Shown here: piece after piece, positions 4,092-63,383 of the stretch
Layout of the letters: each line of letters opens with the position of its first letter
Position numbering within the stretch: position 1 is the first letter of the stretch
Origin: an uncultured Lentimicrobiaceae bacterium
GTDB lineage: Bacteria > Bacteroidota > Bacteroidia > Bacteroidales > WCHB1-69
Assembly (NCBI GenBank): GCA_964598505.1
Contig: CAZRCF010000001.1
Span: 150,543 to 214,542 of the forward strand
DNA length: 64,000 nt
Reading direction: 5' to 3'
Program-made: the position numbers and the translations under genes
Notes under the pieces: model-generated
Told to the model about the DNA's origin: nothing
Seen by the model: the letters and a program-made list of their open reading frames with translations, nothing else
Database searches by the model: none

Positions 4092-4122
4092 GCGGCAAGA
4101 CCTCATAAAGAGATCTTGCCGC
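4092..4122 (-). terminator. intrinsic terminator; CGGCAAGA(T/C)CT palindromic element variant
   Basis: 13-bp stem GCGGCAAGACCTC/GAGATCTTGCCGC with one mismatch. Followed on the minus strand by AATTTTTATT. Confidence 0.65.
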
Positions 4123-4129
4123 TTTTAAA

Positions 4130-4357
4130 TTAATCTTTCTTTTCTTTTAAACGCTCAAACGATTTAATAATGATTGAAAATGGCATCCAAATAGGACATG
4201 TTAGAACAGCCCATTTTATCATAAAGAATGAAAAGTAGCACATTGCCGGTATTAATAACCAATAATATAACCACCCTTGTGAGAATACATTCATATCATA
4301 TTGAAACATTTTCCAAAGAAATGATAAATACTCATTAATAATATCTTGATATATCAT
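4130..4357 (-). CDS. small membrane protein (75 aa)
   Basis: Hydrophobic segments WLYYWLLIPAMCYFSFFMIKWAVL. Confidence 0.55.
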   Translation of the reverse strand: MIYQDIINEYLSFLWKMFQYDMNVFSQGWLYYWLLIPAMCYFSFFMIKWAVLTCPIWMPFSIIIKSFERLKEKKD

Positions 4358-5166
4358 GCAATTTCTCGCATATACATAGCTGTGTTACCAACTGTTTCAT
4401 CAACTTCAATTTGTATGTTTCCCTGAGTGATTCCAAAGTTATTTAAACACATGTAGTTAATTTTATTAGCAAATAGGAATGCCATATTTTCCGCAGTCGG
4501 ATCTAATTCAAAAGGCATAATCACAATCTTCTGATTATGTTTCGCCATATCTACTAACATTGGATCTTTACTATTTAAAACAATAGCATGATCCATTTCA
4601 TTTAGATCTTCTTGAAATGTTTTCAAGAGACTAAAATCAACAACCATATTTGGATTTTTCATCTTCTTAATATCTTCAATGAAAATACTAACTCTGACAA
4701 CATAGCTGTGACCATGGATTTTAGAACAAGGGTGTCCTTCTCCCATACACATTAGTCTATGTGAAGATTCAAACTTAAAGCTCTTCGTTATTCCATACAT
4801 TCCTCTTATATCTCCTTGTTGATTTATTAAATTATTTGATTGACATTTATTACATCTTGATATTAATAATTTTAAAGAGTTATTTTTATCAATTTTATGA
4901 TTGATGTAATTACTTGATAGATATGAAAAAACTTGCGTTTCATCAAAATCTAATGGTGAATTATGATTATATCCTCTTTTAATTAATTCATCAGCAAGAA
5001 TATCATGACGATTTTTTAAAGATAATGGTTCTAATAAATCATTATTTATATAACCATCAATATTAATTTGTTTCTTTAAACTTCCAAGAAACATGTGACA
5101 TTCATTATGTTCACCTAAGAGATGTTGTCGGCACATGATTTTTGGTGTACACATCCACAATCTCAT
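4354..5166 (-). CDS. queD: fusion: TIGR02328/pyrimidine-dimer-glycosylase-like N-domain + 6-carboxy-tetrahydropterin synthase QueD
   Basis: N-terminus MRLW..P..QHLLGEHNECH...RGYNH. C-terminal half has the QueD signature C-x3-HGH (CSKIHGHSYVV) and DHAIVLN. An internal AAGGAG lies before Met123 (ATG at 4800). Confidence 0.75.
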   Translation of the reverse strand: MRLWMCTPKIMCRQHLLGEHNECHMFLGSLKKQINIDGYINNDLLEPLSLKNRHDILADELIKRGYNHNSPLDFDETQVFSYLSSNYINHKIDKNNSLKLLISRCNKCQSNNLINQQGDIRGMYGITKSFKFESSHRLMCMGEGHPCSKIHGHSYVVRVSIFIEDIKKMKNPNMVVDFSLLKTFQEDLNEMDHAIVLNSKDPMLVDMAKHNQKIVIMPFELDPTAENMAFLFANKINYMCLNNFGITQGNIQIEVDETVGNTAMYMREIA

Positions 5167-5384
5167 AATTTTACTGAAATTTTAAGAGAATTCATAAGAG
5201 TTTCTTTTTTTCTTTTTTCTAATTCTTCTTTCGATGGAGATCCAGCAATTCCACCTAGAGGAGCATTACTAGCAAAAATATCAACAATCATTAATCCAGT
5301 TTCATCCATAAACTTTTGCATTGCTTCTTTAATGGTTGATTCTAATTGTTCTTTCTTTTCTAATAATTCATTCCTTACTGTCAT
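5163..5384 (-). CDS. hypothetical coiled-coil protein (73 aa; start moved to Met30 of track ORF)
   Basis: ATG at 5384 is preceded by GAGGGAGAA. The longer track ORF has no SD. Confidence 0.45.
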   Translation of the reverse strand: MTVRNELLEKKEQLESTIKEAMQKFMDETGLMIVDIFASNAPLGGIAGSPSKEELEKRKKETLMNSLKISVKL

Positions 5385-5541
5385 CAGTTTCTCCCTCAAG
5401 ATATTCTTCAATTGTATGAACAATAATACTTTCTCCATTAATTTCTTCTGTATCTGAGAACATCTCTTCAAATAAACAAATCAATTCTTTTATTGTCAAT
5501 GTATCTTCTGTTTCAACTTCAAGTACGATTTTGTGTATCAT
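5368..5541 (-). CDS. small acidic hypothetical protein (57 aa)
   Basis: ATGA overlap with the thyX stop suggests translational coupling. Hand translation gives MIHKIVLEVETED... Confidence 0.4.
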   Translation of the reverse strand: MIHKIVLEVETEDTLTIKELICLFEEMFSDTEEINGESIIVHTIEEYLEGETDDSKE

Positions 5542-6428
5542 TCAAACACCTCCGGATATAATTTTTTAAATTCATCATATAAAGGAATCATTAATTCTCT
5601 CATTTGTGGATGCGCCGCTGAAGAAGTTCTTAATTTAAAAATATGTTTCCATTCTTGTAAATCACAAGAAACAACTATTTCTGTTTTAAGAGAATTTGGT
5701 AATATACTTCTTGCTTGTTCTGGTTTCCAACCATCTCTTATTAAACTTGAATAAGCATGTTCTATTTCATAAAGTGATTTAAACCAAAGCCAACCATTTT
5801 TATGATCTGTTTCTCCCAATCCTTTTGGAGCGGTATTCCAACTATACTCACCTTCTTCAATCCAATCCAACCAAGGTGGAATTATATAAGTTATTTGATT
5901 TTGAAATTTATCTTTAGAATAATTACAATATCTTGTTGATTCCTGACTAAATGCTGGAGGTCGATGTCGGACTATTTCGTGACTGACACCTCTATCGCAT
6001 ATAAATTTGACTGTTGCCGAATACATATCCCATCTTTGCATATCATTAATTCTCTTAAACATTTCTAAAGTTGGAACTGAAAATTTATTTTTATTTTCAA
6101 AATTCCATTCTTCAAAAGCTCTTTGATTTCCAGCAACTATTGTTCCACTATAATAAAATGATGTATAGTTAAGAAATTTATATTTTGGAATATTATAAGT
6201 ATCATAATATCTTAATTCCCAACTATGTTCAGTTACAGAATAGTGTCCTCTATTTTTAATCATTTCAATAAATTTAATAGCCGAATCTTTTGTAATTTTA
6301 TCTTCTGATTTATAACAAGTTCTTCCCGAAGCCTCAATCAAATATTCTGGTCGATTATCATAACTATATGGTAAATCAAGCACATCTGAAGCGGCTAAGA
6401 TCTGATAACTTGGTTTTACTAAGAACAT
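5538..6428 (-). CDS. thyX: flavin-dependent thymidylate synthase ThyX
   Basis: ThyX motif RHRxxSxxxxSxR is present as VRHRPPAFSQESTRY. Confidence 0.9.
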   Translation of the reverse strand: MFLVKPSYQILAASDVLDLPYSYDNRPEYLIEASGRTCYKSEDKITKDSAIKFIEMIKNRGHYSVTEHSWELRYYDTYNIPKYKFLNYTSFYYSGTIVAGNQRAFEEWNFENKNKFSVPTLEMFKRINDMQRWDMYSATVKFICDRGVSHEIVRHRPPAFSQESTRYCNYSKDKFQNQITYIIPPWLDWIEEGEYSWNTAPKGLGETDHKNGWLWFKSLYEIEHAYSSLIRDGWKPEQARSILPNSLKTEIVVSCDLQEWKHIFKLRTSSAAHPQMRELMIPLYDEFKKLYPEVFE

Positions 6429-8479: not shown

Positions 8480-8516
8480 AAATCGGCAAGAGCTTTAAGT
8501 TAGCTCTTGCCGATTT
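8480..8516 (-). terminator. intrinsic terminator; CGGCAAGAGCT palindromic element variant
   Basis: 15-bp stem AAATCGGCAAGAGCT/AGCTCTTGCCGATTT with T-run on the minus strand. Confidence 0.7.
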
Positions 8517-10167: not shown

Positions 10168-10773
10168 TTATAATTCTTCTTCATAAATCTTTTCTACATT
10201 ACAAGTTTCAATTTGAACATAATTAGGATAATCTGAAAAAATTTCTAATTCTAGAATTTTATGAGTTTTTTCTTTATCCAATCCACCTGATTCTTGTTCG
10301 TATTCATTAGTCCAATAATTATGACTGCCACTTGGTGGAAAATAAATTCCAGTTTTTCTAATGAATACTTTTCTAACTTTTGATGTTATTCCAACTAGCT
10401 CTTGCCGATATTTAGAAAATATTTTACGTTCTTTACCACCAAATTGTTCAGATTTAAGATATTCATATGCAAGAGCTGAAATAATTTTATTATATGGTCT
10501 TGAATTGTGTCCATTTACAATAATATCTGGAAATAGTGGTGTTCGGTTATAAATTGTTTTATTAAGAAATTCAACAATTTTATTATGATAAAATTCTTTC
10601 ACTTTTTCCATAGCATCATAAATTGACATTGGATACCCAATTCTGATAATTATTTCCGGATTGGTTATTTTTATTATATCACCAACTCTTATGATCTTTG
10701 GATTGAGCTTCTTTTTTTCCTTGAATATTTCTTTAGCCATTATATCTGATGCATGAACGTTAAATTTTGTCAT
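10168..10773 (-). CDS. hypothetical protein (201 aa)
   Basis: ORF track. Lies immediately upstream of, and may be coupled to, the arginine decarboxylase gene. Confidence 0.55.
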
Positions 10774-20509: not shown

Positions 20510-22288
20510 TTAATGATCTTGAGAATAACGTTCAAGAACAATTTTTTCAATAGGATCTAAAGTTGCATCACGATTATCAATTAATCCAACTTTAACAGCT
20601 CTATTAATATTTTCAAAAATAAGAGAAGATAGCCATGAAAGTATATATGGTAATTTCTTTTGACCTACAATTGTTATATTTTTGTAATTAGTTAATCTAG
20701 CTGGTATGGTTAAATCTTCACTGTCTCTAAACATATTTGAAACAATTGCTTCAATGTGTATCATATCAATTCCAGCTAATTTGTCATGAATTGTCATTGT
20801 TAATACTTCTGGATTAGTGATATATTTTGCGCCGCCCTCGAAGAGCCTATCAACTGTTCTTTCATTAAAAGTATCATCATAATAATCTTGTTTTATAATT
20901 ATTTCACCAGGTTCGTAATTCATAGTTATTATATGACCATCTTCTATGACTTCCGCTGGTTTAAATACGTCAACCATGATTGCAAAAGGTAATGTTATAA
21001 AATTAATATCTGGTGATTCACCATATTGAACAGTTAGTACTCCGATTGTTTGATATTTATCTCCACAATCAATTAATGAAATATCATTATATTCCGTATC
21101 ATCTATAGATATACTACATTGTGTTTTTGCAATTATTTCATTCTTTTTAATTTCAAGAATATTATTAAATTGCTTAATATCAATTCCAGCTTTTTTAATC
21201 ATATCAATAAAATCTACTTCTTTTGTATTTATCGAAGATGATTTGTGTCTCATTTTCATCATCGAATTTATACCAATTTGATTTGCTGCTCCACTTGCCA
21301 GTATTCCAATATTAATTGTGTTTAATGTTTTATAAAGATTGCCATAGCAAGTTGGACAAATGCCGGATTTTGAAATACAATATAATGGAGATCTTAATTT
21401 AATCTTTTTATTAATAATTTGATCTGCGGAAATTATGTTTTTAATTGAACCAGATTGTGATACATAATTTCTTTGCAAAAGAAGATCGGCAAGATCTTCA
21501 GTGATAACTAAATCAAATGTTCTTTTTGTTCCACAATCTTCGTTTTTAACATCTATCTGTAATCCTGCGTTTGCTTGAACCATTTTTCTAGTAAGATATC
21601 CTGGATGTGCTGTTAGAGCAGATCTTATATAAAAGTTTTTACGTGCTTCTGAACCTGCATTATAATAATCTATTTTTCCATAACCAGTGTTTAAACTGGT
21701 TGTAATAGGTCCAAGAAGTTTACCTTCAATATCAATTGCATAACCTTTTGCTACTAATAATGCTCCCCAATCGGAAATAGGATTTCCTTTTGTTCCAGAA
21801 GACATTATATCATTTGCTCTAAATCCTGATTCTTCGAAATATGATAATAACTCTTTTGTAAGTTTTTCAGCTTCTTTTTTAAATTCAACAGGATCAAGTT
21901 TACTTGCTGTTTTTTCAAACTCATCTCGTTTCTTAACCCATTCTGCAGGTGGAACAAACATATCGATTGTAAATGTATTTGGGGAAATACTAGCTAATTT
22001 AAAAGCTTCAGTTTGAAGTTTTGAAACAATATCTACAGCTTCTTCTGTACCATATTTATTATACATTTCAATAATAATTTTATTCATCAGGTTTTGATTA
22101 ACTGGTTCATTTACTAATGGATAATCCGCAGGCAATAATTGATTAAACCATATCCGACCAAGAGTCAGATTAACACTTTTTCCATTAGTCTTTTTTGGAT
22201 GAGAATATGATACTTTTGAAGAAAGTTTTTTCCCATCTTTAATTAAATCATATATATTGTCTGATGTTGAAATTGGTTGTGCCGACAT
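20510..22288 (-). CDS. multisubunit RNA polymerase beta-prime homolog, C-terminal module (bridge helix + trigger loop)
   Basis: SGTKGNPISDWGALLVAKGY (SGARGS..QLAGMRGL), ARKNFYIRSALTAHPGYLTRKMV (bridge helix), EDCGT, GILASGAANQIG..MKMRHKSS (trigger loop region). Confidence 0.8.
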   Translation of the reverse strand: MSAQPISTSDNIYDLIKDGKKLSSKVSYSHPKKTNGKSVNLTLGRIWFNQLLPADYPLVNEPVNQNLMNKIIIEMYNKYGTEEAVDIVSKLQTEAFKLASISPNTFTIDMFVPPAEWVKKRDEFEKTASKLDPVEFKKEAEKLTKELLSYFEESGFRANDIMSSGTKGNPISDWGALLVAKGYAIDIEGKLLGPITTSLNTGYGKIDYYNAGSEARKNFYIRSALTAHPGYLTRKMVQANAGLQIDVKNEDCGTKRTFDLVITEDLADLLLQRNYVSQSGSIKNIISADQIINKKIKLRSPLYCISKSGICPTCYGNLYKTLNTINIGILASGAANQIGINSMMKMRHKSSSINTKEVDFIDMIKKAGIDIKQFNNILEIKKNEIIAKTQCSISIDDTEYNDISLIDCGDKYQTIGVLTVQYGESPDINFITLPFAIMVDVFKPAEVIEDGHIITMNYEPGEIIIKQDYYDDTFNERTVDRLFEGGAKYITNPEVLTMTIHDKLAGIDMIHIEAIVSNMFRDSEDLTIPARLTNYKNITIVGQKKLPYILSWLSSLIFENINRAVKVGLIDNRDATLDPIEKIVLERYSQDH

Positions 22289-22782: not shown

Positions 22783-25542
22783 TTATCCACAAGATCCTTG
22801 ATTATAACTACAATTATTACAGAAATAACATGAACCTAATCGTCTCATAGTGTTTCCGCAATTTGGGCATATTGGTCCTAAAATTTCTTTAGAATCAATT
22901 GTTTTTATTTCTTCTTTTTCGAGTAAGATTCCATTTGAATCTGAAGCTTGAATTAATCCCAATTCAATTTGATCTTCTTTTTCAAGAAATTTTAAACCGA
23001 CATATCTTGCAATATAATCTACAATACTATGGGCTATTCTAATATCAGGATTTGAAGTAAAACCATTTGGTTCAAATTTAAGATGTGATAGTTTGCGAAT
23101 TAAATCCTTTAACGGAACACCATATTGTAGGGAAATACTTATTACTGTTGCAAGTGCGTCAGCAAACCCAGATATTACAGATCCTTCTTTTGACACATTT
23201 ACGAAGACCTCGCCGAGTTTATTAGAATTCGCGTATAATCCACACGTGATGTATCCTTCACTACTTCCAATTCTAAACTTATGAGTAATAGACATTCTCT
23301 CGTCTGGGAGTTTCTTTCTTGTTAATTTAGTTGGAATTGTTTCTTTTAATTCTTCTTTTTTAGAAGAATTGTCTGTTGTTGATAATGGTTGAAAATTTTT
23401 ACTTCCATCTCTATAAATTGTAATTCCTTTTAATTCCATTTTCCAAGCTTCAATATAGAGATTATATATTTCATCAACTGTAACATCTTTTGATAAATTA
23501 ATTGTTTTACTGATTGCTCCACTTAAGAATGGTTGAACCGCTGCACACATTTTTACATGTCCCATATAATCTATACAAAGATTGTTTGTATTGGGAGTTG
23601 GTGCAGCTGTTAGAAATACTTCTCTATGTTTCCATTCTTTAAATTTTGTTATTGAATGAGGTTCTTCCCCACTTCCACTAATTAATTCATTTACTAATTC
23701 TGGAATTTCATTTTCAGAATATCCTAAATTCAATAGAGATTCTTCAACTATTGGATTGACTGTTTTTAAAGTTGCCCCATCAGATCCAGCCAATCTTTTA
23801 TATCTTATTAAACTATATTCTGGTTCAATTCCAGTAGTGATTGAATTCATTAGAAAGCTAATTGTTCCAGTTGGAGCTAATAAACTGACTTGAGCATTTC
23901 TAAATTTCTTTCTTTTAATAACTTCTTCCCAGTTGCTGGTACAGAATTTCTTTATTGTTTTTGTATAGAATTCTTCGTTATTAACTTCTTCCCAGTTGCT
24001 GGTACAGAATTTCTTTATTGTTTTTGTATAGAATTCTTCGTTATTAACTTCGAAAAATATAACATCTTTAAATAACTCTTGAACTTTATCATAATGTTGT
24101 TTTAATACTCTTTTAAAGGGTGCGTCATTGGCATCAAATCTATTAAATTCTCCAACTTTATCTGCAAGATCTGCACTTGTATTATATGCTATTCCTGTCA
24201 TAAGAGCAGTTAATCCAGCTGCAACAAATCTTCCTTCATCACTATCATATGGAAGTCCGAGCCACATTAGTAGACCACCAAGATTAGTATATCCAAGGCC
24301 AAGGTTTCTATAAGAAGCTGTTCTTAATCCTATGTCTAGACTTGGGTAACTCGATTTATCGATTAAAATATCTTGTGCAGTAATAACTGTTCTAATTACA
24401 TCTTCAAATGTTGCTATATCAAAAATAATATTATTTTCTTTATTTCTTGAAAAGAATTTTAGTAGGTTAATTGACGCTAGATTACAACTTGTGTTTGCTA
24501 ATGCCGCATATTCACCACATGGGTTGGTTGACTCAATAATACCATCATTTGATACTGTATTCCATTTATTAAAAGCATCATGAAATTGAATACCTGGATC
24601 TGCAATTTTCCAACTCATTTCCGCAATTTTTCTTAATAGAGCTTTTGCTGTATATGTTTTATATGTTGCTTTTGTTTTAACGAATTTAGTATCCCAATGT
24701 TCATCATTTATAACTTTACGCATAAACACATCAGGAATTCTAACTGATATATTTGTGTTTTGAAAATAAACTTCATCGGCAAGATCATATCCCGGTCTAT
24801 TTTTTATACCAGCTTTTCTTAAAACTGCTAATTTTTCTTCTTCATAAAGTTTACAATTAATGAATTCTTCAATATCAGGATGGTTCATATTTAGACAAGC
24901 TAATTTTGCACTTCGTCTTAATGTGCCTCCAGATTTGACTACGCCCGCGAGGGTATCGTGAGCTTTAAGAAAACTGATTGGTCCACTTGCTGTGCCTCCA
25001 CCACTAACTGCTTCCTTAGAACTTCTTAAATTACTTAAATTAGATCCAGCTCCAGAACCTTTCTTAAAAATTTGAGCTTCAAGTTTTCCAAGTTCTGTAA
25101 TTGAATCCATATTATCTTGAACACCAAGAATAAAACAAGCACTTGTTTGAGGTAATTCCTGAACCCCACAGTTGAAATAAACTGGTGAATTAAAAGCAAA
25201 ATATCTGTTCATTTGATAATATTTTAACTTATAGTTAAAATCCCATTTTTCATGATCGGATTCATCCGGATATTTATCAGAAGAATGTTTTCCGAAATAT
25301 TCTTGTTCTACTCCCCAATTAGAAATTGTATCACTAACTCTGTCAATCATTTGTTTAAGAGATGTTTCTTTATATTTTGAATTATTACAGAGATATCTGC
25401 TAGCGACTACTGCAGCAGCGTTATCATCAAAATCTTTAGGAAATTCAATTTTATCACTAAAAACTATATCTCCATTAGGAGATTTAATTTCTACATTTTT
25501 AATTTCAAATTCTATGTCTTTATAAGGATCTTTTGGGTTCAC
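22783..25542 (-). CDS. nrdJ: class II (adenosylcobalamin-dependent) ribonucleotide reductase NrdJ with C-terminal zinc ribbon
   Basis: TNPCGE active-site motif, RNAQVSLLAPTGTISFL, and a C-terminal CPNCG...CYFCNNC. GTG start with GGAGG 8 nt upstream. Confidence 0.88.
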   Translation of the reverse strand: MNPKDPYKDIEFEIKNVEIKSPNGDIVFSDKIEFPKDFDDNAAAVVASRYLCNNSKYKETSLKQMIDRVSDTISNWGVEQEYFGKHSSDKYPDESDHEKWDFNYKLKYYQMNRYFAFNSPVYFNCGVQELPQTSACFILGVQDNMDSITELGKLEAQIFKKGSGAGSNLSNLRSSKEAVSGGGTASGPISFLKAHDTLAGVVKSGGTLRRSAKLACLNMNHPDIEEFINCKLYEEEKLAVLRKAGIKNRPGYDLADEVYFQNTNISVRIPDVFMRKVINDEHWDTKFVKTKATYKTYTAKALLRKIAEMSWKIADPGIQFHDAFNKWNTVSNDGIIESTNPCGEYAALANTSCNLASINLLKFFSRNKENNIIFDIATFEDVIRTVITAQDILIDKSSYPSLDIGLRTASYRNLGLGYTNLGGLLMWLGLPYDSDEGRFVAAGLTALMTGIAYNTSADLADKVGEFNRFDANDAPFKRVLKQHYDKVQELFKDVIFFEVNNEEFYTKTIKKFCTSNWEEVNNEEFYTKTIKKFCTSNWEEVIKRKKFRNAQVSLLAPTGTISFLMNSITTGIEPEYSLIRYKRLAGSDGATLKTVNPIVEESLLNLGYSENEIPELVNELISGSGEEPHSITKFKEWKHREVFLTAAPTPNTNNLCIDYMGHVKMCAAVQPFLSGAISKTINLSKDVTVDEIYNLYIEAWKMELKGITIYRDGSKNFQPLSTTDNSSKKEELKETIPTKLTRKKLPDERMSITHKFRIGSSEGYITCGLYANSNKLGEVFVNVSKEGSVISGFADALATVISISLQYGVPLKDLIRKLSHLKFEPNGFTSNPDIRIAHSIVDYIARYVGLKFLEKEDQIELGLIQASDSNGILLEKEEIKTIDSKEILGPICPNCGNTMRRLGSCYFCNNCSYNQGSCG
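23920..24045. repeat. perfect 63-bp tandem duplication (2 copies, plus 6 bp of a third) inside nrdJ
   Basis: Positions 23920-23982 and 23983-24045 are identical. In-frame, duplicating the 21 aa EVNNEEFYTKTIKKFCTSNWE. Confidence 0.95.
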
Positions 25543-25818: not shown

Positions 25819-26322
25819 TTAAATAATTTTAAAGTGATCAGAATTTGTTATCTTAGATTTCTTATATAAGGTCATAAGAAAATTTTCAATATTCTGCCGA
25901 TATTCTAAATCTTTTGTATCTCTATGTTCACAATCAATTAACCAATTATTTGTTTTAATTTGTTTAAAATTTATTTCATCATATGTATTTAAATGATATA
26001 TTGCTAAATCAAACATCACATCTGCAAGATCTATAAACCCCATCCAAATTGTATATGCAATTGAATCGAATACTGTTCTGTCGCAAATTACAATATCATA
26101 AATATTTGTTAATTCAATTTCTGTTCTCATTTGATTTGTAAAAATCCAAAGCTGAGACTCCGCTGTGCCTTTTTTATTATAAAGACCTTTAGGAGCTCTT
26201 GCCGCATTATCATGAAAAACTGTAATGCTTTTGTCTGGATAAGCTAATTTAGCAGCTTTTGCCGAATCAAATACAGAAGTTGTCTTACCAGTTCCTTGTG
26301 TTCCTGTATATGCTATTTTCAA
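25819..26322 (-). CDS. P-loop NTPase (AAA_28 / NadR-kinase-like small kinase candidate), TTG start
   Basis: Walker A GTQGTGKTT and a Walker-B-like IVICDR. TTG start with AAGGAG 10 nt upstream. Confidence 0.55.
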   Translation of the reverse strand: MKIAYTGTQGTGKTTSVFDSAKAAKLAYPDKSITVFHDNAARAPKGLYNKKGTAESQLWIFTNQMRTEIELTNIYDIVICDRTVFDSIAYTIWMGFIDLADVMFDLAIYHLNTYDEINFKQIKTNNWLIDCEHRDTKDLEYRQNIENFLMTLYKKSKITNSDHFKII

Positions 26323-30517: not shown

Positions 30518-30537
30518 TTATGCCTCCAAAAAGATTT

Positions 30538-30572
30538 ATATCGGCAAGATCAAGTTAAGATCTTGCCGATAT
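30538..30572 (-). terminator. terminator; CGGCAAGATC palindromic element
   Basis: 14-bp stem ATATCGGCAAGATC/GATCTTGCCGATAT with loop AAGTTAA. Located downstream of queE. Confidence 0.7.
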
Positions 30573-30579
30573 ATTTAAT

Positions 30580-31458
30580 TTATATAATTGGAATAGAAAC
30601 ACATTTTGATTTTCTTACATCAACATACTCGTCTCTATGCTTGAAGTTATTAAATACCCAAACATGTGCTCGAGGACTAAATACATATCCTTTTCTCATA
30701 CAATAATCAATTGTATCATAACTAGATTTTCTAAAGTCTTCTAGAAATTTCATTTCAGTCTTATATTCCAAATAATCTGGAGTTAAAGGCATTATACAAA
30801 TATTACAAACATAAGGAATGTCTGTAATAAATTTATTAATTAATTCTTCTTCAGCTTTAGAATATACAAATTTCCAAGTAATTGTAGTTGGTGTTTCTTC
30901 TAATATTTTCCGATACGATTCTCTATAATTCTCATCAAATAATGAAATTATATCATCAACTGTTTTAATCTTATCAGACCTATAATAACTAGGATCTAGC
31001 TTAGGGGATATATTAATTTGTATAGTTTTATCCCAATGATAGAAAAGCATTTTGTCAGTATTGCTGTTTAACAATACTCCATTTGTTTCAATTTCAATTT
31101 TAGTAATATTCTTTAAATTGGTGTTTTTGTTATATATTAAACTTCCAATAAATTCTTTATTCATTAGAGGTTCACCACCAGTTAGAAGAATGGTGTTGAT
31201 TTGAAATTTATTCAAGAATTGTTCATTCAGATAATTTATAAAATCATCTATGCTTGTTTCATCAACAGTGAACGGCAAGATCTTATTTCTAGAACTAAAT
31301 TTCTTAACATCTTTAATCTTTAAATTATTTGACCATGAGGTATCACACCATTCACAATCTAAATTACAATTGCCCATTCTAATGAGTAATACTGGTGTTC
31401 CCACGCTAGGACCTTCACCTTGTACCGTAGGAATTAACTGACTAATAATTGTTTTCAT
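30580..31458 (-). CDS. queE: 7-carboxy-7-deazaguanine synthase QueE (radical SAM)
   Basis: TVQGEGPSVGTPVLLIRMGNCNLDCEWCDT matches the QueE N-terminal signature with the CxxxCxxC-type cluster. GGAGG SD upstream. Confidence 0.85.
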   Translation of the reverse strand: MKTIISQLIPTVQGEGPSVGTPVLLIRMGNCNLDCEWCDTSWSNNLKIKDVKKFSSRNKILPFTVDETSIDDFINYLNEQFLNKFQINTILLTGGEPLMNKEFIGSLIYNKNTNLKNITKIEIETNGVLLNSNTDKMLFYHWDKTIQINISPKLDPSYYRSDKIKTVDDIISLFDENYRESYRKILEETPTTITWKFVYSKAEEELINKFITDIPYVCNICIMPLTPDYLEYKTEMKFLEDFRKSSYDTIDYCMRKGYVFSPRAHVWVFNNFKHRDEYVDVRKSKCVSIPII

Positions 31459-32974: not shown

Positions 32975-34525
32975 TTAATTTTGTCGAATTTCTGCAAAAC
33001 TTTTTGCTTTTTCCCAATTATTTTTATTTGTTGTTGAATCGCTAATTGGTTTGGTTTTAAGTCTCTTGCCGATACAAATGTCACATTTACCACATTCTTT
33101 AGTTCTTGTATAGTCGTTAAAATAATCAAGAATTTGTAGCATGCGGCAAGATCTAGTATTACTAACAAATTCGGACATATCAGTAAGAACATCAAATTTA
33201 GCTCTTCTCTTTTCTTCTAGAGTATTAAAATTAAAATATTCATCAAGAGATCTATTATGATCTATTTTATATTTACCTCTTCCAATGGTTTCGATAAAAC
33301 CATTTTCTCTTAATTTGGAAACACATCCACTGGTGTAACAACCTTTCATAAAAGAACTGCATTGTTCTTCCATTTCTTTTTGAGTCATTAATAGCATAGC
33401 ATTATCATCTACATTATCACAACACCATTGCCAAAAAGATCTAATATCTTCATTAGGTGGATATGACATTTCAATAAAGAATTTTTGTAATCCAATGTCT
33501 CTAAAGACATCAAAATATACAATACATTCTGCGCCTTTTCCATCTCTTGAAGCCCGTCCAATTTCCTGATAATAGTTTTCTACACTAGCTGGCATACCAG
33601 CATGAATCACGAAGCGAACGTCTGATTTATCTATTCCCATACCAAATGCAACTGTTGCAACTACAATTCCACCATTTTTAAACCAATTGGTTTGAGTTGA
33701 TTCTCTAGTTTTATCATCTAATCCAGCATGATATAATACAGCTGGAATATTTTCATTTATTAATTTTTCATTTATTTCATCTGCTAATTTTCTAGTAGGT
33801 GCATAAATGATTCCAGTTTTTATTCCAGAGTGAATGTAACCAGATGTTTTCTTTACAATGTGATCAATTTTCGAGGAAGCATTGCAGGTTTTGACTGAAA
33901 GTTCCAGATCTGGCCGGTAAAATCCTTGAATAAATTTCTTAGCTTTTAAAATATTTAATTGTTTACATATGTCTTTTTGAACTCTAGCAGTTGCAGTTGC
34001 TGTTAAAGCTATTACTTGTCTAGGTTCTAAAAATTCAATAGTATCTTTGAGTAATCTATAACTTGGTCTAAAATCGTGACCCCAACTGGAAATACAATGA
34101 GCTTCGTCTACTGCAAATAATTCAATTTTATTTGTCATTTTTAAGGCTTGAGTAAATCTTTGATCACTAAATCTTTCAGGAGCTATATAAAGAAGTTTTA
34201 CTTCTTGTCTTACTAATTTCTGGTGAATTATTTTCTTTTCAAATTCTAGTAGACTTGAATTATAAAATTCAGCAGTAATTCCTTTTGATTTTAAATAATC
34301 AACTTGATCTTTCATTAAACTTATTAGCGGCGAAATCACTATTGATAATCCATCCATGAGTAAAGAAGGAATCTGATATAATAAACTCTTTCCTGCTCCT
34401 GTTGGAAATACTGCTAATACTCCTTTATTTTCAATATCAAATATTGAATCAATAACTTCTGCTTGTGCATCTCTAAATGATTCAAATCCAAATACTTCTT
34501 TTAGAACTGTTTCTTTATCTAACAT
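32975..34525 (-). CDS. recQ: RecQ-family ATP-dependent DNA helicase
   Basis: FGFESFRDAQ, PTGAGKS, DEAHCISSWGHDFRPSY, and a RecQ zinc-binding Cys cluster CRM..L.....CGKCDIC. Confidence 0.9.
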   Translation of the reverse strand: MLDKETVLKEVFGFESFRDAQAEVIDSIFDIENKGVLAVFPTGAGKSLLYQIPSLLMDGLSIVISPLISLMKDQVDYLKSKGITAEFYNSSLLEFEKKIIHQKLVRQEVKLLYIAPERFSDQRFTQALKMTNKIELFAVDEAHCISSWGHDFRPSYRLLKDTIEFLEPRQVIALTATATARVQKDICKQLNILKAKKFIQGFYRPDLELSVKTCNASSKIDHIVKKTSGYIHSGIKTGIIYAPTRKLADEINEKLINENIPAVLYHAGLDDKTRESTQTNWFKNGGIVVATVAFGMGIDKSDVRFVIHAGMPASVENYYQEIGRASRDGKGAECIVYFDVFRDIGLQKFFIEMSYPPNEDIRSFWQWCCDNVDDNAMLLMTQKEMEEQCSSFMKGCYTSGCVSKLRENGFIETIGRGKYKIDHNRSLDEYFNFNTLEEKRRAKFDVLTDMSEFVSNTRSCRMLQILDYFNDYTRTKECGKCDICIGKRLKTKPISDSTTNKNNWEKAKSFAEIRQN

Positions 34526-39376: not shown

Positions 39377-39391
39377 AATTAACTCCTTGAC

Positions 39392-39425
39392 TATCGGCAA
39401 GATCTTTAACTAGATCTTGCCGATA
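39392..39425 (-). terminator. terminator; 28-bp CGGCAAGATCT palindromic element, inverted copy
   Basis: CGGCAAGATCTTTAACTAGATCTTGCCG is the exact reverse complement of the cores at 45338 and 53651. Confidence 0.7.
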
Positions 39426-39436
39426 AAATATAAAAA

Positions 39437-42890: not shown

Positions 42891-42916
42891 ATTATTATCT
42901 CCAAAATTGATTATTA

Positions 42917-42939
42917 GCAAGATCACTAATAGATCTTGC
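42917..42939 (-). terminator. degenerate copy of the CGGCAAGATCT palindromic element
   Basis: The right arm AGATCTTGCCGATA is intact. The left arm has decayed to TTAGCAAGATCA, leaving the 8-bp stem GCAAGATC/GATCTTGC. Confidence 0.45.
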
Positions 42940-42957
42940 CGATACATTTATTAAGTT

Positions 42958-43284
42958 TTATATTTTACGTTCCTGATAATCTCCAAAGATTTTATTTATC
43001 TTATTTTTTGCTTCTATTCTCATTTTATTTATATCTCTTATTTGTAAAGCTCTTTTGCCTACTTCTTCTAACGGCATATCTTTTCCATTTCTAATATCCG
43101 CTTCTAAAATCCATATCTTTGAGTTAGCTTCTATAAGATCAGCCATACTATCAAAAATTCCGGTATCATAACGTTCTATCTCTTTTTTAATTTCAATATA
43201 TTCATCTCCAATATTATCTAATACTCTTGCTTTCATTCTTAAAATAGACCATTTGTCAAATATGTCACCTACTGTCATTTTCAT
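42958..43284 (-). CDS. DUF4254-like protein (family often linked to glycosyltransferase loci)
   Basis: Pattern DKWSILRMK ... NSKIWILEADIR ... IRDINKMRIEAKNKIN resembles DUF4254. Weak, by eye only. Confidence 0.35.
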   Translation of the reverse strand: MKMTVGDIFDKWSILRMKARVLDNIGDEYIEIKKEIERYDTGIFDSMADLIEANSKIWILEADIRNGKDMPLEEVGKRALQIRDINKMRIEAKNKINKIFGDYQERKI

Positions 43285-43291
43285 AAAGTTA

Positions 43292-43858
43292 TTATTTCCT
43301 CCATGCCGTAAAGGTAGTTCTTGAATCATCTTGAAAAGTTAATGTTACGTTTTCAAGACGATTCATAAACTTTTCCATTGTAATTCTATCTGTTTTATCT
43401 GCATGCCATTCTATTGCCCATTTTCGAATTTTTAGTAATTCGTCGTCTGATAATTCAGGTAAGAAATCTTTTTCAGTTCCTTCACAATCTATTTTTAGGA
43501 AATCTATCTTTTCTAAATTATTAAGAATGCTTTTAAAACTAATAAAATCAACTTCCTCTGGAACTCCTCTTGTTAAATAAATTCCACTACTAGGTGTATC
43601 GTTTATGTCAAAATATATATTTCCTTTTCCATTATTTAAACAAACTGCAGCTTTTGTTAATTCTACTTCTTTAATTAATTTGCATATTTTGAATAATTTA
43701 TTGCATGGTTCAAACGCTATAATTCTTCCTGCTTTTTTAGATTTAGCATAATATATAAACTCTCCAACATGTGCACCAATGTCAACTACTATATCTCCTT
43801 CTTCAACATCACAATTTGGGGTTATATACGTATTAATATCTGTTACTGGATTAATCAT
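43292..43858 (-). CDS. FkbM-family SAM-dependent methyltransferase
   Basis: VVDIGAHVGEFIYYA ... IIAFEPC matches the FkbM (TIGR01444) N-terminal signature. ATGA overlap with the upstream gene. Confidence 0.7.
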   Translation of the reverse strand: MINPVTDINTYITPNCDVEEGDIVVDIGAHVGEFIYYAKSKKAGRIIAFEPCNKLFKICKLIKEVELTKAAVCLNNGKGNIYFDINDTPSSGIYLTRGVPEEVDFISFKSILNNLEKIDFLKIDCEGTEKDFLPELSDDELLKIRKWAIEWHADKTDRITMEKFMNRLENVTLTFQDDSRTTFTAWRK

Positions 43859-45300
43859 ATTCGACTCATTTCTGGTGTGCGAGCAAAACACATCTTACAT
43901 ATATTTGGAAAATCGTGATTAAGAAGTTGTTTTCTCCACAAATTCCACCTACTTAAAAATTTATCATATCCATCACGAATATCACCAATGTACATTTCAG
44001 ATTGCCAATCTCCACAACATACATGTCCTTTACCACAATAATCTACAATCAATTCCCAATTAGGTCTACCACATCTTTCGATATTATTACCTTCTATCTG
44101 TTGTATTCTTCCGTCCAGAGCACCTTGTTGAAACCTTATATTTTTACAAGTGTCTGAAAGAATATTGAGTGCAGTAGTATTTGTTTCTGGATAAATTGTA
44201 ACCATAACATCTGTAAATCTTTTTATAAGAAATTTGTCTTCGATTGATAAATTTATTCCGTTTGTCCACAGTGAGTATTTTGCTTCTGGAACAGCCTCTA
44301 TTATCTCAATTAGTTTATCTTTTGACAATAGGGGTTCATTATAATAATGAACATTAACAAGACCATCAAATCCTCGATTTATACAATGGTGAAGAAATCC
44401 GATAATATCTTTTGTTTCAAGTGGATTTCCTATTAGTTTTCGAGTGTTTCTTGGACATTCTTTATGTAAATTAGTAAGTTGACATTCATCGTTTATCTCA
44501 AATGCAAGATGTTTAAGAAAGTGAAGATCAATATGTGTATCCAGAATTGGTAATACCATATCGTTTTTGTGGGAATTACATGCAAGTACAATATCATTTT
44601 TTGTTACTGTGAAATGTTGATATCCATATCCTTTTTCCTTATTTTCTTTACTAAATCGTTTCTTGCGAAGAAGTCTTCTTGAAATTGCTAATGATGGATC
44701 TGCCATTTGCCAATGAACACCACTATATCTTTCTGCACAAAGATTGAACTCCTTTTCTAATTCGTGATTTCCAGGTTTAAATTGAATACCTATTCCTGGT
44801 CTAATAACAATAGGTTTTACATAATATATATTTGCAGCAGTATGTTCTGACTGCCAAGTTGATAGTCGATCGGGATCGCCATGTAATCTTTGTGGAACAG
44901 GTAAATCATTATAATCAAGATCTTTGTCGTCTTTATGCCGATATACTTGATATAACCATGCTAATATTATATCTCCTTCTTGGCGTTTTAAGAACTCTTT
45001 AGAATTTTCCCATGAAGCTGGAAATATAAATTCGTCCGGGTCAACAACATAGACCCAATCACATTTTATTAAGTTAAGTTGTTCATTTATTATTCGTACT
45101 TTTTGTGAATCATCAAGTCCTTCTTCTATATGACATGGAATTATTTTAATATTATTATATGATAAAAGAATACTCTCTGTTTTATCATCTGTATCAGTTT
45201 CTAGAAGGACCCTAATTTCGTCAACATCTTTATAATGATTACAAAAAAAATGAGCCATTTGCTCTTCATTATACATCATCGTAATGATTCCAATTCGCAT
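43855..45300 (-). CDS. two-domain protein: GT2-like glycosyltransferase N-domain + Cys-rich radical-SAM/SPASM-like C-domain
   Basis: N-terminus MRIGIITMMYNEE... is GT-A-like. C-terminus has VHYYNEPLL, WTNG, CGRPNWELIVDYCGKGHVCCGDW...IGDI...CKMCF (SPASM/twitch-like). No canonical CxxxCxxC motif was seen. Confidence 0.4.
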   Translation of the reverse strand: MRIGIITMMYNEEQMAHFFCNHYKDVDEIRVLLETDTDDKTESILLSYNNIKIIPCHIEEGLDDSQKVRIINEQLNLIKCDWVYVVDPDEFIFPASWENSKEFLKRQEGDIILAWLYQVYRHKDDKDLDYNDLPVPQRLHGDPDRLSTWQSEHTAANIYYVKPIVIRPGIGIQFKPGNHELEKEFNLCAERYSGVHWQMADPSLAISRRLLRKKRFSKENKEKGYGYQHFTVTKNDIVLACNSHKNDMVLPILDTHIDLHFLKHLAFEINDECQLTNLHKECPRNTRKLIGNPLETKDIIGFLHHCINRGFDGLVNVHYYNEPLLSKDKLIEIIEAVPEAKYSLWTNGINLSIEDKFLIKRFTDVMVTIYPETNTTALNILSDTCKNIRFQQGALDGRIQQIEGNNIERCGRPNWELIVDYCGKGHVCCGDWQSEMYIGDIRDGYDKFLSRWNLWRKQLLNHDFPNICKMCFARTPEMSRI

Positions 45301-45334
45301 AGATTTCCTTTCTTTTTAATTCTAAAAAAATTGT

Positions 45335-45370
45335 TTATCGGCAAGATCTAGTTAAAGATCTTGCCGATAA
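45335..45370 (-). terminator. terminator; 28-bp CGGCAAGATCT palindromic element
   Basis: 15-bp stem TTATCGGCAAGATCT/AGATCTTGCCGATAA with loop AGTTAA. Confidence 0.7.
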
Positions 45371-45372
45371 AT

Positions 45373-53647: not shown

Positions 53648-53683
53648 AATCCGGCAAGATCTAGTTAAAGATCTTGCCGGATT
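53648..53683 (-). terminator. terminator; 28-bp CGGCAAGATCT palindromic element
   Basis: 15-bp stem AATCCGGCAAGATCT/AGATCTTGCCGGATT with loop AGTTAA. The core is identical to the one at 45338. Confidence 0.7.
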
Positions 53684-55864: not shown

Positions 55865-56539
55865 TTATTTATCTAACATTCTTTGATTGAGATCTCTTAA
55901 ATCCTGTCCAAGTGATTCACCACTTTCACCTGCTACTCCATTTTTCCCGGAATCTCCAATAAATCCTTCTATAATATTATATCCACCAATAGCGTTTGCT
56001 CCACCTATTTCTGGTTTTAGTTTTTCTTTAACTTTTATACAATAATCTCTACCTTCTTGTAACGCTTCAATAAAGTTATTGATGTGTTCTGGGTCAGTTA
56101 AAAGAAAGTCACCATGTAACTTGATCTTGCCGGTAAAGGCTAATATAATTGCTTTCTTCCATCTATAAAGAAATCTTCTAAACCAATTAAATTTAAAGAA
56201 TCCATATTCTGGATATCTCCAATGATCAAATCTAACCTCTTTATAAAAATGAAGTTGTATTAACCCAAATTCATTATCACATTCGATTTCAACTATCGAA
56301 CCACATTCGTTATCTCCACATTCACATTGTACTGAATACCAAAGAGATTTATCAAATTTATGTATTAATGAAACTCCTTTTTTAAATTTACTTTGAAATT
56401 CCATTTTATCGGCTTGAGTCATTTGTTGTTTCTCCTTAAATTGTTTAGCGTCATCAGATAAATGCCACTTAGATGAAGTGGATTCAAAACAGTTTGGGCA
56501 GATATATGTGCAGATAATTTTACAAGTTGGACATATCAT
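55865..56539 (-). CDS. hypothetical protein with N-terminal zinc ribbon (224 aa)
   Basis: MICPTCKIICTYICPNC. Confidence 0.55.
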   Translation of the reverse strand: MICPTCKIICTYICPNCFESTSSKWHLSDDAKQFKEKQQMTQADKMEFQSKFKKGVSLIHKFDKSLWYSVQCECGDNECGSIVEIECDNEFGLIQLHFYKEVRFDHWRYPEYGFFKFNWFRRFLYRWKKAIILAFTGKIKLHGDFLLTDPEHINNFIEALQEGRDYCIKVKEKLKPEIGGANAIGGYNIIEGFIGDSGKNGVAGESGESLGQDLRDLNQRMLDK

Positions 56540-59130: not shown

Positions 59131-59140
59131 AAAATTGCAA

Positions 59141-59171
59141 AGCTAGAGAGAAGTGTTAATTCTCTCTAGCT
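59141..59171 (-). terminator. intrinsic terminator (divergent relative of the palindromic element)
   Basis: 12-bp stem AGCTAGAGAGAA/TTCTCTCTAGCT, flanked by TTGCAA / CTTGCCAA remnants. Confidence 0.6.
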
Positions 59172-59182
59172 CTTGCCAATAT

Positions 59183-61143: not shown

Positions 61144-61151
61144 ATAATCTC

Positions 61152-61939: not shown

Positions 61940-61961
61940 TTAAATTCTCCTTAAAAGTTAT

Positions 61962-62309
61962 TTAATCAGCATCTTCATAAGATGAATTTTTCCTACTAGC
62001 TGTACAACTTGGACACAATCTTATAAATTTACTTTCAGACCAAAATTTATATGGTGTTGAATGATTTGATCCCAAACATTCCACTTTTACTAGTTTGTTT
62101 GATTTTTTGCGAACTCTATAATCATTTCGATCTTGTTTGTTTAAAGTAAGAGTTCCTTTACAACCATCTTTAACCCATTGTCTAATTATTGTTGCATGTC
62201 TTCTGCTTATTGATACTTGTTTTAGGCTTTCAGTAATAGTTGTTTTTATATCTTTTTTAAAAAGATTAATCAGTTTACGTATCTTTACATTATCTTCTTT
62301 GTCTGGCAT
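61962..62309 (-). CDS. basic hypothetical protein with C-terminal Cys pair (115 aa)
   Basis: ORF track; CLG ... CPSC. Confidence 0.5.
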   Translation of the reverse strand: MPDKEDNVKIRKLINLFKKDIKTTITESLKQVSISRRHATIIRQWVKDGCKGTLTLNKQDRNDYRVRKKSNKLVKVECLGSNHSTPYKFWSESKFIRLCPSCTASRKNSSYEDAD

Positions 62310-62343
62310 TATTTGTATCTCCTACATTTTGTTGAATAAAAGT

Positions 62344-62376
62344 GACTGGAACACTATATAATTATAGTGCCCAGTC
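62344..62376 (-). terminator. intrinsic terminator downstream of beta-prime fragment
   Basis: Stem GACTGG-AA-CACTATA / TATAGTG-C-CCAGTC followed on the minus strand by ACTTTTATTC. Confidence 0.65.
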
Positions 62377-62384
62377 TAGTAATT

Positions 62385-63383
62385 TTATACTTGTCCTAAG
62401 AAAATTTTCTCATAAATTGTCAAATTCTCAAGATCGATATTATCAAGTTCCTCTAAATCCACTTTTTCAATAGTTTCTTTGTTTGGTTGATATAATAATC
62501 CAATTCGGCTAGATATAAAACTTGCCATCATTTTGTCACCAAGTTTATATGTCGGTGGCAGATCTTGCCGATATCTCCAGAATTCTTTTTTATCATAATC
62601 TGTTATAAACATGTTTGCAAATAATATTTCAACAAAGGAACTGTATAAATTTCCAACTGTTAATAAAGCAGTCATCAATTCTATATAGTAAGGTACAACT
62701 GAAGTTGTAACTGGTCCTTGTCTTAATATGGATTTAATATTGTTAACAACCGAGATTACATCCTGATTGTAGACTATATGATGATCTTCACCATATATAA
62801 GAGTTTTACCTTTGACTTCTTTTAATCCATATACTTGTTGTGTAGATGAAGAAACTATTAATTGAATTGGAAATTGATCTGTATCGAATTCTAATGTAGT
62901 TTCCTCTTGATTATTAATAATATCTGTTTTCACATTTATTAAATGTTCTTCAAAAAATTTAACAATTTCAGAATCAACTGGTAGAGTTGCCCGCCCAGAC
63001 TCGTGAAAAGTTCTCAATGTTAGCTGCGTTAGCCGCTCTGTTATTAATTGCCCAGCTACAATACCAGCATATTTCGTTGTTAATCTTTTTGCACCAAAAC
63101 ACTTGTTGCAAATTTTGAAATTATGATTCACACAAGTCATCGGGGAACGAACACAAATCTTTTTATTTATATAGCTCTTTGCCGTTATAGAATCTAATAT
63201 TTTCCAATCAGGAAATGTCTCTAATTCTTTAGGGTCACAATAATATTTTCCAATTAATGTTGAAGCATGATCCTTAGACATTACAATAAATTCTAAATGA
63301 TTGTTCGTTTCACAATCTTCGAGATCAAATTCAATCATTGACAGGGCCATTACAAGAGTACGTTCTAAATCAGAAATATTCAA
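62385..63383 (-). CDS. multisubunit RNA polymerase beta-prime homolog fragment (second half of bridge helix through trigger loop); probable downstream exon
   Basis: [25 protein letters not shown] aligns with [43 protein letters not shown] aligns with [45 protein letters not shown] is the trigger loop. The ORF opens with TTG right after an in-frame TAG and has no SD. Confidence 0.75.
   Translation of the reverse strand: [332 protein letters not shown]

Follow-up and report, generated by a model that had tools for sequence, protein, structure and literature searches.

Why would a phage use one and the same stem sequence for many of the hairpins between its genes, and why would single arms of that hairpin also stand inside genes? 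This question is raised by a stretch of 64,000 nucleotides (hereafter the window; positions 150,543 to 214,542 of contig CAZRCF010000001.1, assembly GCA_964598505.1), which was deposited under an uncultured Lentimicrobiaceae bacterium and is a stretch of an uncultured jumbo phage encoding its own multisubunit RNA polymerases (RNAPs). The G+C content of the window is 28-31%, and the open reading frames (ORFs) of at least 80 amino acids that tile it all lie on the minus strand. A first-pass annotation, made from the letters alone, had described a palindromic element of 28 bp after stop codons, with half-sites in coding regions. Here we show that the unit of this element is an 11-nt word under strand-symmetric, nucleotide-level constraint in coding DNA, a result that is statistical and is replicated in relatives of the phage, and we weigh what the hairpins and the word might be for.

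Results

An 11-nucleotide word recurs between and within genes

The word reads CGGCAAGATCT and has a second allele, CGGCAAGAGCT. The 28-mer of the palindrome is CGGCAAGATCT-AGTTAA-AGATCTTGCCG, for which chance predicts no exact copy; exact copies lie at 45339-45366 and 53652-53679 and, as the reverse complement, at 39395-39422, so that the identical core first reported for three sites is confirmed. The same is true of the close variants (4093; 8484, where AGAGCT/AGCTCT is compensated in both arms; 30542), the decayed copies (42917 and 59141), the exact intragenic arms (21487, 24777, 31273, 33144, 56123 and 62561) and the one-mismatch forms (10398, 26195, 35505 and 61505), all of which were recovered within one base of the positions first given. 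Further one-mismatch forms stand at 9781, 12785, 20063, 24162, 26022 and 33907.

The most enriched 10-mers of the window are CGGCAAGATC and its complement, with 8 + 8 exact occurrences where about 0.01-0.02 are expected per strand, in keeping with the rough estimate made initially; with up to one mismatch, the 10-mer has 29 sites in the window against 0.83 expected. Among the 358 kb examined, no other word or hairpin family behaves alike, and the next families have 2-3 copies. The word is not a known Illumina adapter, and a sequencing-adapter artefact is ruled out by the identical sequence in independent ENA, JGI and Logan assemblies.

Single arms inside genes are constrained at the nucleotide level

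The six exact arms in genes of the window occupy relative gene positions of 0.2-0.9, three frames and both orientations. On the plus strand are those at 21487..21497 in the RNAP subunit gene 20510-22288 (GAT CTT GCC GAT, frame 0), at 24777..24786 in the ribonucleotide reductase gene, at 31273..31283 in a QueE-like gene (AAG ATC TTG CCG) and at 33144..33154 in a helicase gene (AGA TCT TGC CGC). On the minus strand are those at 56123..56132 in gene 55865-56539, whose function is unassigned (ACC GGC AAG ATC, with one base different in the ortholog of the related locus L110), and at 62560..62570 in the RNAP beta' fragment gene 62385-63383; the second allele CGGCAAGAGCT stands, likewise on the minus strand, at 10397..10407 in gene 10168-10773 and at 26194..26204 in gene 25819-26322. 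The codons used by the arms are rare ones: GCC provides 5% of Ala, CGG 4% of Arg, GGC 6% of Gly and ATC 8% of Ile. A single conserved peptide motif, which the first-pass annotation had named as an explanation that would undo its proposal, is ruled out by the three frames and six different peptides in which the arms are found (DLAD twice, KILP, RSCR, TGKI, YRQDL).

Our main test shuffled synonymous codons within each gene, which preserves both the proteins and their codon usage. Against this null, the exact 10-mer occurs 6 times in genes of the window where 0.13 occurrences are expected (0 of 2000 shuffles), showing that the enrichment persists beyond the hairpins, and 16 times against 3.3 when up to one mismatch is allowed. 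The relatives, which amount to 276 kb, have 15 exact occurrences against 0.38 expected and 68 against 9.5 with up to one mismatch. Over all coding sequences, the exact 11-mer CGGCAAGATCT is found 17 times against 0.34 expected, and scrambled 11-mers of the same composition are found at most 4 times. When the T/G allele is included, the two orientations number 8 and 18 arms; this apparent 2.3:1 orientation bias is explained by the codon-constrained null, which gives 0.14 : 0.32, and the enrichment is therefore about 55-fold on either strand. Selection of the half-sites at the DNA level, as proposed initially, thus finds support in the synonymous shuffles of the window and of its relatives, in the rare codons, and in the use of all frames and both orientations.

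The flanks of the single arms resemble those of a hairpin arm: the word is preceded by A(T/C), and position 11 is T in 17 of 20. Among the one-mismatch sites, variants of CGGC are not enriched, the other seven positions are enriched 4-43-fold, and nearly half of the sites are the AGAGCT allele. No partner arms were found near the intragenic sites, and 21487 alone has a small local hairpin, which is unrelated. Some arms, rare codons included, are the same at every base in orthologs that share 68-76% identity (AGATCTTGCCG and CGGCCAGATCT in the helicase gene, with identical bases at 33144..33154 in the L038 ortholog, and AACGGCGAGATC in orf12344), against an ortholog background of 60% same-codon use and 14.6% identical 4-codon windows. 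Other arms are confined to one lineage, such as that of QueE, where the L038 ortholog reads AAA AAA TTA CCA. Sites have a density of about 1 per 3-4 kb, and the single arms are no further from hairpins than random positions are (P = 0.27).

The intergenic copies form hairpins with and without a T-run

Each intergenic copy is a hairpin of two inverted words with an AT-rich loop of 5-9 nt and a few covarying outer pairs, which together give a stem of 13-17 bp. Predicted RNA folds of the window copies have free energies (dG) of -13 to -25 kcal/mol and z of -5 to -9.5. The described position after stop codons holds for all eight hairpins, which begin 4-30 nt past a stop on the transcribed (minus) strand.

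An intrinsic-terminator consensus scan passes five of the eight (4093, 8484, 30542, 45339 and 59141), and an AT-rich promoter box, described below, follows three (4093, 8484 and 59141). The hairpin at 4092..4122 (GCGGCAAGATCTC / GAGGTCTTGCCGC, with one U.G wobble; dG -25.3, z -8.2) is terminator-like and leads into a T-run and the box, as do that at 8480..8516, which carries the AGAGCT/AGCTCT allele, and the decayed, extended and likewise terminator-like hairpin at 59137..59176 (GGCAAGAGCTAGAGAGAA...). Also terminator-like are the hairpins at 30537..30573, between the QueE-like and dUTPase_2 genes, in a position that is occupied in L038 as well, and at 45334..45371 (16-17 bp, exact 28-mer), which forms the left boundary of a three-gene block. 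The scan misses 39395, 42917 and 53652 because they have no T-run; these run straight into AAGGAG/GGGAG + ATG. The exact 28-mers among them, at 39391..39426 (6 nt upstream of AAGGAG + ATG) and at 53648..53683 (AATCCGGCAAGATCT..., 15 bp, directly before AGGGAG + ATG), are not called terminators; the third is a decayed hairpin at 42912..42944 (right arm GATCTTGCTA, dG -13.4), which forms the right boundary of the three-gene block.

Overall, 59 distinct copies comprise 16 with a T-run and the promoter box, 10 with a T-run alone, 19 that lie 5-15 nt upstream of a ribosome-binding site (RBS) and have no T-run, and 13 others with no T-run. Reuse as a terminator, as first suggested, is consequently borne out for part of the family: a T-run accompanies five of the eight window copies and 26 of the 59 overall, and of the copies with no T-run, the three in the window and 19 overall stand directly before an RBS.

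The window holds about 20 strong non-coding hairpins, 8 of which carry the element. Some 12 other strong hairpin terminators have unrelated stems (e.g. the hairpins with T-run at 62376, 37737, 25616, 20503, 13771 and 10998), several of these likewise directly before an RBS, and in a 285-kb relative, IMGVR_UViG_3300021520_000002, the promoter boxes are often preceded by unrelated hairpins. The conserved core is unnecessary for termination; because terminators of the same genome have unrelated stems, its invariance needs another explanation. A second, much smaller conserved hairpin family, GGCCAGAGGA...TCCTCTGGCC followed by a T-run, was seen in two metagenome-assembled genome (MAG) bins, at L119:2726 and L129:3904, the L119 copy with a promoter box next to it.

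The core is invariant and its pairing selected across relatives

When the palindrome was scanned for as an exact pattern, it turned up in four low-GC viral contigs of IMG/VR (51-285 kb) and, among the matches listed from 185,579 species genomes, in small low-GC contigs of a few MAG bins. Another 89 loci among the matches listed (83 genome, 6 viral) are GC-rich and represent single chance palindromes. Synteny with the window was seen at seven loci, whose proteins are 40-90% identical to those of the window. About 70 distinct copies share the invariant 11-nt core though their flanking proteins are only 40-90% identical, and the core is present in phages as remote as 38-44% SSB identity. This invariance, seen beside same-genome terminators with unrelated stems, supports the initial view that we are dealing with one sequence-specific element and not with independent terminators.

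Individual copies can be followed between phages. The hairpins at 30542, 42917 and 4093 correspond to L038:2810, L008:2925 and L123:2859, and that at 8484 corresponds to L026:5622, with a compensated change between AGAGCT/AGCTCT in the window and AGATCT/AGATCT in L026; such orthologous positions persist across 57-75% protein identity. Differences in presence exist too: upstream of the QueD-fusion gene, a copy stands in L123 and in L064 but not in the window.

In the roughly 70 copies, the core C-GGCAAGATCT hardly varies and shows 97-100% Watson-Crick pairing, and the pairs flanking it covary (TA 42 / CG 18 / GC 2 at one; AT, TA and GC further out). An alignment of 40 copies has 95.5% of its cells paired, and 7 of its 14 pairs have changed on both sides (52 cells). 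No shuffle out of 500 reaches any of five measures, and sliding the partner by 1-3 columns leaves 30-43% pairing; because covariation exceeds all shuffles and slid controls, we conclude that the pairing is under selection. The 11 G.U and 5 unpaired core cells of this subset are too weak a contrast for telling RNA from DNA pairing.

One junction shows the element as a recombination joint

Three genes on the minus strand (42958..45300; products of 481 aa, 188 aa with a Methyltransf_21 domain, and 108-123 aa) stand between the copies at 45339 and 42917 and are missing from L008. That locus consists of the left flank of 45339, one chimeric hairpin and the right flank of 42917: to the left, in homology to the left flank of 45339, is the end of the small ORF that follows the ligase gene, and the right flank, homologous to that of 42917, ends in an RBS and the start of an orf600 homologue. 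Because L008 joins the two flanks at a single copy, the three extra genes lie exactly between two direct copies. No target-site duplication was found at the L008 junction, and gene content next to copies also differs in L110 and L123. The element hence acts as a recombination joint for gene-block exchange, as shown once by this clean junction, a single case to which no statistic is attached; of the roles that the first-pass annotation had listed, recombination is the one directly supported.

An AT-rich box is a probable early promoter

The box TTT(C/T)ATATAGAAAT(A/T)ATAT occurs nine times in the window, always between genes and always on the sense (minus) strand, at 4059-4068, 8451-8460, 14590-14599, 14890-14899, 25648-25657, 39883-39892, 41101-41110, 53371-53380 and 59105-59114. 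Three boxes are linked to hairpins of the element, 4059-4068 coming after 4092-4122, 8451-8460 after 8480-8516 and 59105-59114 after 59137-59176. The box is also present in L137 and L138, and where the genes diverge, close to the start of the source contig, it switches strand along with them. Early promoters of phage AR9 are extended and AT-rich (AAATATATATTAT-N6-G; PMC5312081), and by analogy the box is probably the early (virion-RNAP) promoter of the clade. Matches to sigma70-type promoters are at chance level in the window, and ATATAGAAAT is not sigma70-like. A promoter-box scan of more distant relatives for 'dialects' returned the same clade and chance hits, with no alternative word.

Source genome and neighbouring genes

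The window is part of the 205,069-bp metagenomic contig k141_123413 of ENA ERZ27262927, with which it is identical apart from one 63-bp duplication. This difference in length is unrelated to the element and corresponds to an in-frame tandem duplication in the ribonucleotide reductase gene (23915-24051; 2.2 copies, 98% identical), of which the ENA record has one copy fewer (898 vs 919 aa). Split beta/beta' subunits of a phiKZ/AR9-type multisubunit RNAP are encoded at 14920-19614, 20510-22288, 28197-29504, 50700-52658 and 62385-63383 (PHROG and Pfam matches), together with ribonucleotide reductase, an NAD-dependent ligase, a RecQ-type helicase, SSB, ThyX and a complete preQ0 pathway. The nearest cultured phages are Bacillus PBS1/AR9 and the Staphylococcus jumbo phages, with only 22-24% identity in an RNAP beta subunit, and megablast and blastn searches against 50,697 deposited phages yielded neither a relative nor a copy of the element; because of this low identity and the empty megablast search, we assign the phage to a deep uncultured jumbo-phage lineage.

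Among the RNAP genes, 14920-19614 encodes a protein of 1564 aa in which RNA polymerase beta (Rpb2_6) homology is confined to the C-terminal two thirds. Its product is a fused or extended subunit, and the gene sits in an 11-kb stretch without any copy of the word. At 63468-64000 and beyond (L138:8156-8842), a free-standing, homing-endonuclease-like HNH_3 + HTH_7 gene separates two RNAP beta' fragments (Rpb1_2 and Rpb1_5 domains).

The preQ0 genes (57088-57876, 4354-5166, 30580-31458 and 7508-8182) specify GTP cyclohydrolase I, a QueD/PTPS that carries a fused Pyr_excise (endonuclease V-like) domain, QueE and QueC, and ThyX and a dUTPase_2 protein are encoded as well (5538-6428 and 29852-30517). 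The DNA of the phage is probably modified with 7-deazaguanine; the 82 kb examined of the source contig revealed no DpdA. Known DpdA targets are GA and GGC, i.e. 2-3 nt long (PMC10484667, PMC7544227), and they lend no support to the idea that the 11-mer is such a target. A link of the GATC and AGATCT in the core to modification or restriction sites is not supported: with 232 occurrences against 216 expected and 49 against 45.5, both words are at expected frequency in the window, which rules out a Dam/BglII or other GATC/AGATCT effect. Two other words are depleted, GGCC (7 observed vs 20 expected) and GGATCC (0 vs 6.2), as if the phage avoided HaeIII-/BamHI-type restriction, and the remaining 4-base palindromes are near expectation.

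Two tRNA genes on the minus strand, for Ser (anticodon TGA) and Thr (anticodon TGT), lie at 9510-9597 and 22691-22766, and they alone reach the gathering score when Rfam covariance models are run on the window, the element being unmatched. An extended Shine-Dalgarno (SD) variant (GGTGA), AAAGAAGGTGA(A), occurs 7-8 times, each time on the sense strand, suggesting a host in which anti-SD pairing is long, e.g. a Firmicutes-like one.

Discussion

Sequence-conserved terminators and promoter-terminator cassettes are already known in large phages, and the hairpin family described here resembles two such kinds. The terminators of phiKZ and 201phi2-1 have a conserved stem motif (PMC10914365, PMC11512511). 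Like the present phage, these are jumbo phages with their own multisubunit RNAPs, in which dozens of intergenic stem-loops share a stem sequence and keep their positions relative to homologous genes. In 150 kb of phiKZ, the stems are degenerate and polar, with a pyrimidine-rich 5' arm (GCCCTCCC, GCCTCCC, GCCTTCCC...), a purine-rich 3' arm and then TTAT. In contrast to this polar CCYCCCC...GGGRRGG stem with its TTAT, the 11-nt core in our phage is invariant, of mixed composition and non-polar, and more than half of the copies have no T-run. The two also differ within genes: in the phiKZ control, the arms are not enriched and if anything avoided (CCYCCC 3 vs 4.4 expected; GGGRGG 0 vs 9.7), whereas here they are enriched about 50-fold. 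Since phiKZ arms are unenriched, the intragenic excess is not a general side effect of sequence-conserved terminators.

The second resemblance is to the PeSL cassettes of T4-like phages, in which a terminator stem-loop and an early promoter are repeated between genes (PMC2839356, PMC4122927), a combination found here in 16 of 59 copies and in three of the eight in the window. An ORF between two PeSLs has been found replaced in a relative by a single chimeric PeSL (PMC2839356), just as the genes between 45339 and 42917 are at L008:2925, and the authors speculated that the conserved stem is a protein target (PMC2839356, PMC4122927). However, the PeSL promoter is sigma70-like and about 100 bp are conserved, whereas the AT-rich box is phage-specific and separable from the hairpin: many copies have no promoter, and the box also stands beside unrelated hairpins. 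PeSLs moreover belong to T4-like rather than phiKZ/AR9-like phages, and intragenic single arms have not been described for them.

Such singles are instead familiar from the uptake sequences of naturally competent bacteria, whose intergenic copies form inverted-repeat hairpins and which stand alone inside genes (PMC2346458). Both the DNA uptake sequences (DUS) of Neisseriaceae and the uptake signal sequences (USS) of Pasteurellaceae share with our word a length of 10-12 nt, great over-representation on both strands within and between genes, inverted pairs that serve as hairpins or terminators, no general orientation bias, and 'dialect'-like variants (here T/G at position 9). They are read by an uptake machinery, whereas a virulent-type jumbo phage has no known uptake step, and the density of about 1 per 3-4 kb is lower than theirs. 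Repetitive extragenic palindromic (REP) sequences and bacterial interspersed mosaic elements (BIMEs) of enterobacteria and pseudomonads are likewise short imperfect palindromes after stop codons; they are credited with stabilising mRNA 3' ends and attenuating transcription, and proteins bind them as DNA. They differ from the present element, which has a far more conserved core, single arms inside genes, no clustered BIME arrangement and no RAYT-type transposase in the 82 kb seen. A comparison with Chi found no orientation bias of the arms relative to transcription.

The reading that we prefer, though we consider it about as likely to fail as to stand, has three layers: a clade-specific terminator or attenuator hairpin that doubles as a recombination joint and is built from a word which is itself under strand-symmetric nucleotide selection. 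The hairpin copies would be the clade's standard transcript-boundary module. With a U-tract, a copy would act as terminator or attenuator, often with the promoter box in a terminator-promoter cassette; with no U-tract, it would be an intercistronic stem-loop before the RBS that may attenuate transcription, protect mRNA ends, or both. Because the element is repeated, its copies serve as joints where gene blocks are gained or lost, as the one junction shows. Something would read the word itself, because single copies are kept on either strand, in any frame and in rare codons at about 50 times expectation, and this factor would most likely act on double-stranded DNA. Inverted pairs in terminators would then simply be the cheapest place for two copies of the word, as in DNA uptake sequences. 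A further step is more doubtful than not, namely that the 11-nt word is a 'self-word' of the phage, a genome-wide, strand-symmetric tag read on duplex DNA by a clade-specific factor and kept, at about one site per 3-4 kb, even where it costs the use of rare codons. If so, it might serve recombination or repair in a Chi-like manner, discrimination between phage and host DNA, or genome handling in replication and packaging.

Several points weigh against the three-layer reading. Termination or attenuation is inferred from the form and position of the hairpins, and the U-tract is missing at three of the eight window copies and at 33 of the 59 overall. Stem mismatches are balanced between G.U and A.C (14 vs 13), so the selected pairing may be that of RNA or of single-stranded or cruciform DNA, and loops occur about equally in both orientations (e.g. 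TTTAACTA 10 vs TAGTTAAA 8), which means that they leave no polarity mark on the RNA. As for the word, no candidate reader protein was identified, and short-patch copying from hairpin arms into near-matching coding sequence may be the source of single arms. The sites are spaced only weakly more evenly than random ones (coefficient of variation 0.68 vs 0.93, P = 0.065), and in related viral contigs the promoter-dense stretches L147 (11.9 kb, 5 boxes) and L148 (7.9 kb, 9 boxes) contain no arms, so that word density is uneven along these genomes. In addition, the annotated 82 kb of the source contig and the part of its genome seen, about a third, set the scope of our view. The relatives (the L-numbered loci) are metagenomic loci with simple ORF calls, and they were retrieved via the intergenic palindrome itself, not via the intragenic arms.

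Each of the rival explanations conflicts with at least one observation. It is conceivable, though unlikely, that the element works as RNA only, the stem being recognised on the transcript by some protein of phage or host, such as an endoribonuclease that processes RNA or a factor for termination or antitermination, and single arms being functionless by-products, e.g. of short-patch copying from the genome's hairpin arms, which number roughly 100. This would fit the sense-strand position after stop codons, the strong covariation, the few sense-strand U.G wobbles (e.g. 4093 and L137:12410), and the frequent match between single-arm and hairpin variants (AGAGCT, CGGCGAG). It fits poorly with loops that flip freely relative to transcription and with the G.U/A.C balance. 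The arms themselves are a further difficulty, since they cannot form a hairpin and have no local partner, are equally enriched in both orientations, show enriched variants at other positions but not at CGGC, and are in some cases kept base for base between diverged orthologs; conversion over 10-11 nt with an internal mismatch would require homologies of 4-5 nt, and phiKZ arms yield no such by-product. The strand-symmetric behaviour, flipping loops, invariant core and position-specific mismatch tolerance of single arms are what one would expect of an operator or roadblock, in which a dimeric protein binds the duplex palindrome, single arms are weak half-sites and the hairpin is incidental. Yet the 10-mers are spaced by anything between 5 and 11 nt, too variable a distance for a rigid dimer, and regulator half-sites are not expected at 50 times chance in coding regions. 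A core variant in one arm always has its compensating counterpart in the other, and covariation extends to outer stems of unrelated sequence, which argues for selected pairing rather than two independent protein contacts, and we regard an operator as improbable.

To the same small degree we would credit a host word, i.e. an uptake sequence or Chi-like signal of the host that the phage has acquired or mimicked. The architecture is that of uptake sequences (hairpin pairs, lone copies in genes, neither orientation favoured, about 1 per 3-4 kb; PMC2346458), and a core shared down to 38-44% SSB identity is what a conserved host machine would lead one to expect. But the low-GC matches among those listed from the 185,579 species genomes are all on small phage-like contigs of a few MAG bins, and the matches listed include no many-copy bacterial chromosome. 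Moreover, known Chi sites are short (5-8 nt) and polar, and to our knowledge uptake sequences are limited to Neisseriaceae and Pasteurellaceae. The REP-like mobility, or that of miniature inverted-repeat transposable elements, which the first-pass annotation had entertained would make the palindrome a selfish repeat, propagated by a transposase or through hairpin-directed insertion. Such an element would account for the many near-identical copies that lie between genes in either orientation and for some presence/absence differences between relatives, but we hold it to be very improbable: orthologous copies persist in relatives of 57-75% protein identity, no transposase, HUH or RAYT domain appears among the precomputed Pfam annotations that cover 82 kb of the source contig, the junction examined has no target-site duplication, the differences are gene-block replacements, and in-frame single arms in intact, conserved enzymes cannot be insertions. 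Least probable of all is that the arms are promoters for the non-virion RNAP, with palindromes before an RBS starting transcription and intragenic arms acting as internal promoters. The 19 of 59 copies that stand shortly upstream of an RBS with no T-run could be so understood, and AR9 has internal and antisense late promoters (PMC5312081). A palindrome, however, would fire both ways, the single arms have no preference for the sense-driving orientation, a T-run follows 26 of 59 copies and a separate promoter box 16, and the compensatory changes show selected pairing.

What is new in comparison with known terminators and cassettes is that the hairpin arm is also maintained as a single word in coding genes, irrespective of frame and strand and with the use of rare codons. 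As far as could be found, the literature holds no description of selected single arms for phages, and phiKZ, the one well-studied comparison, shows the opposite. The compact and very stable hairpin module, with or without a U-tract, is a candidate transcription or RNA-stability part, and the element marks sites of gene-block exchange in these genomes. The maintained word suggests that this deep branch of uncultured jumbo phages has a sequence-specific reader, for which the word and its variants provide a searchable handle. Should the word indeed be a self-word, it would be a viral counterpart of the uptake or Chi sequences of bacteria.

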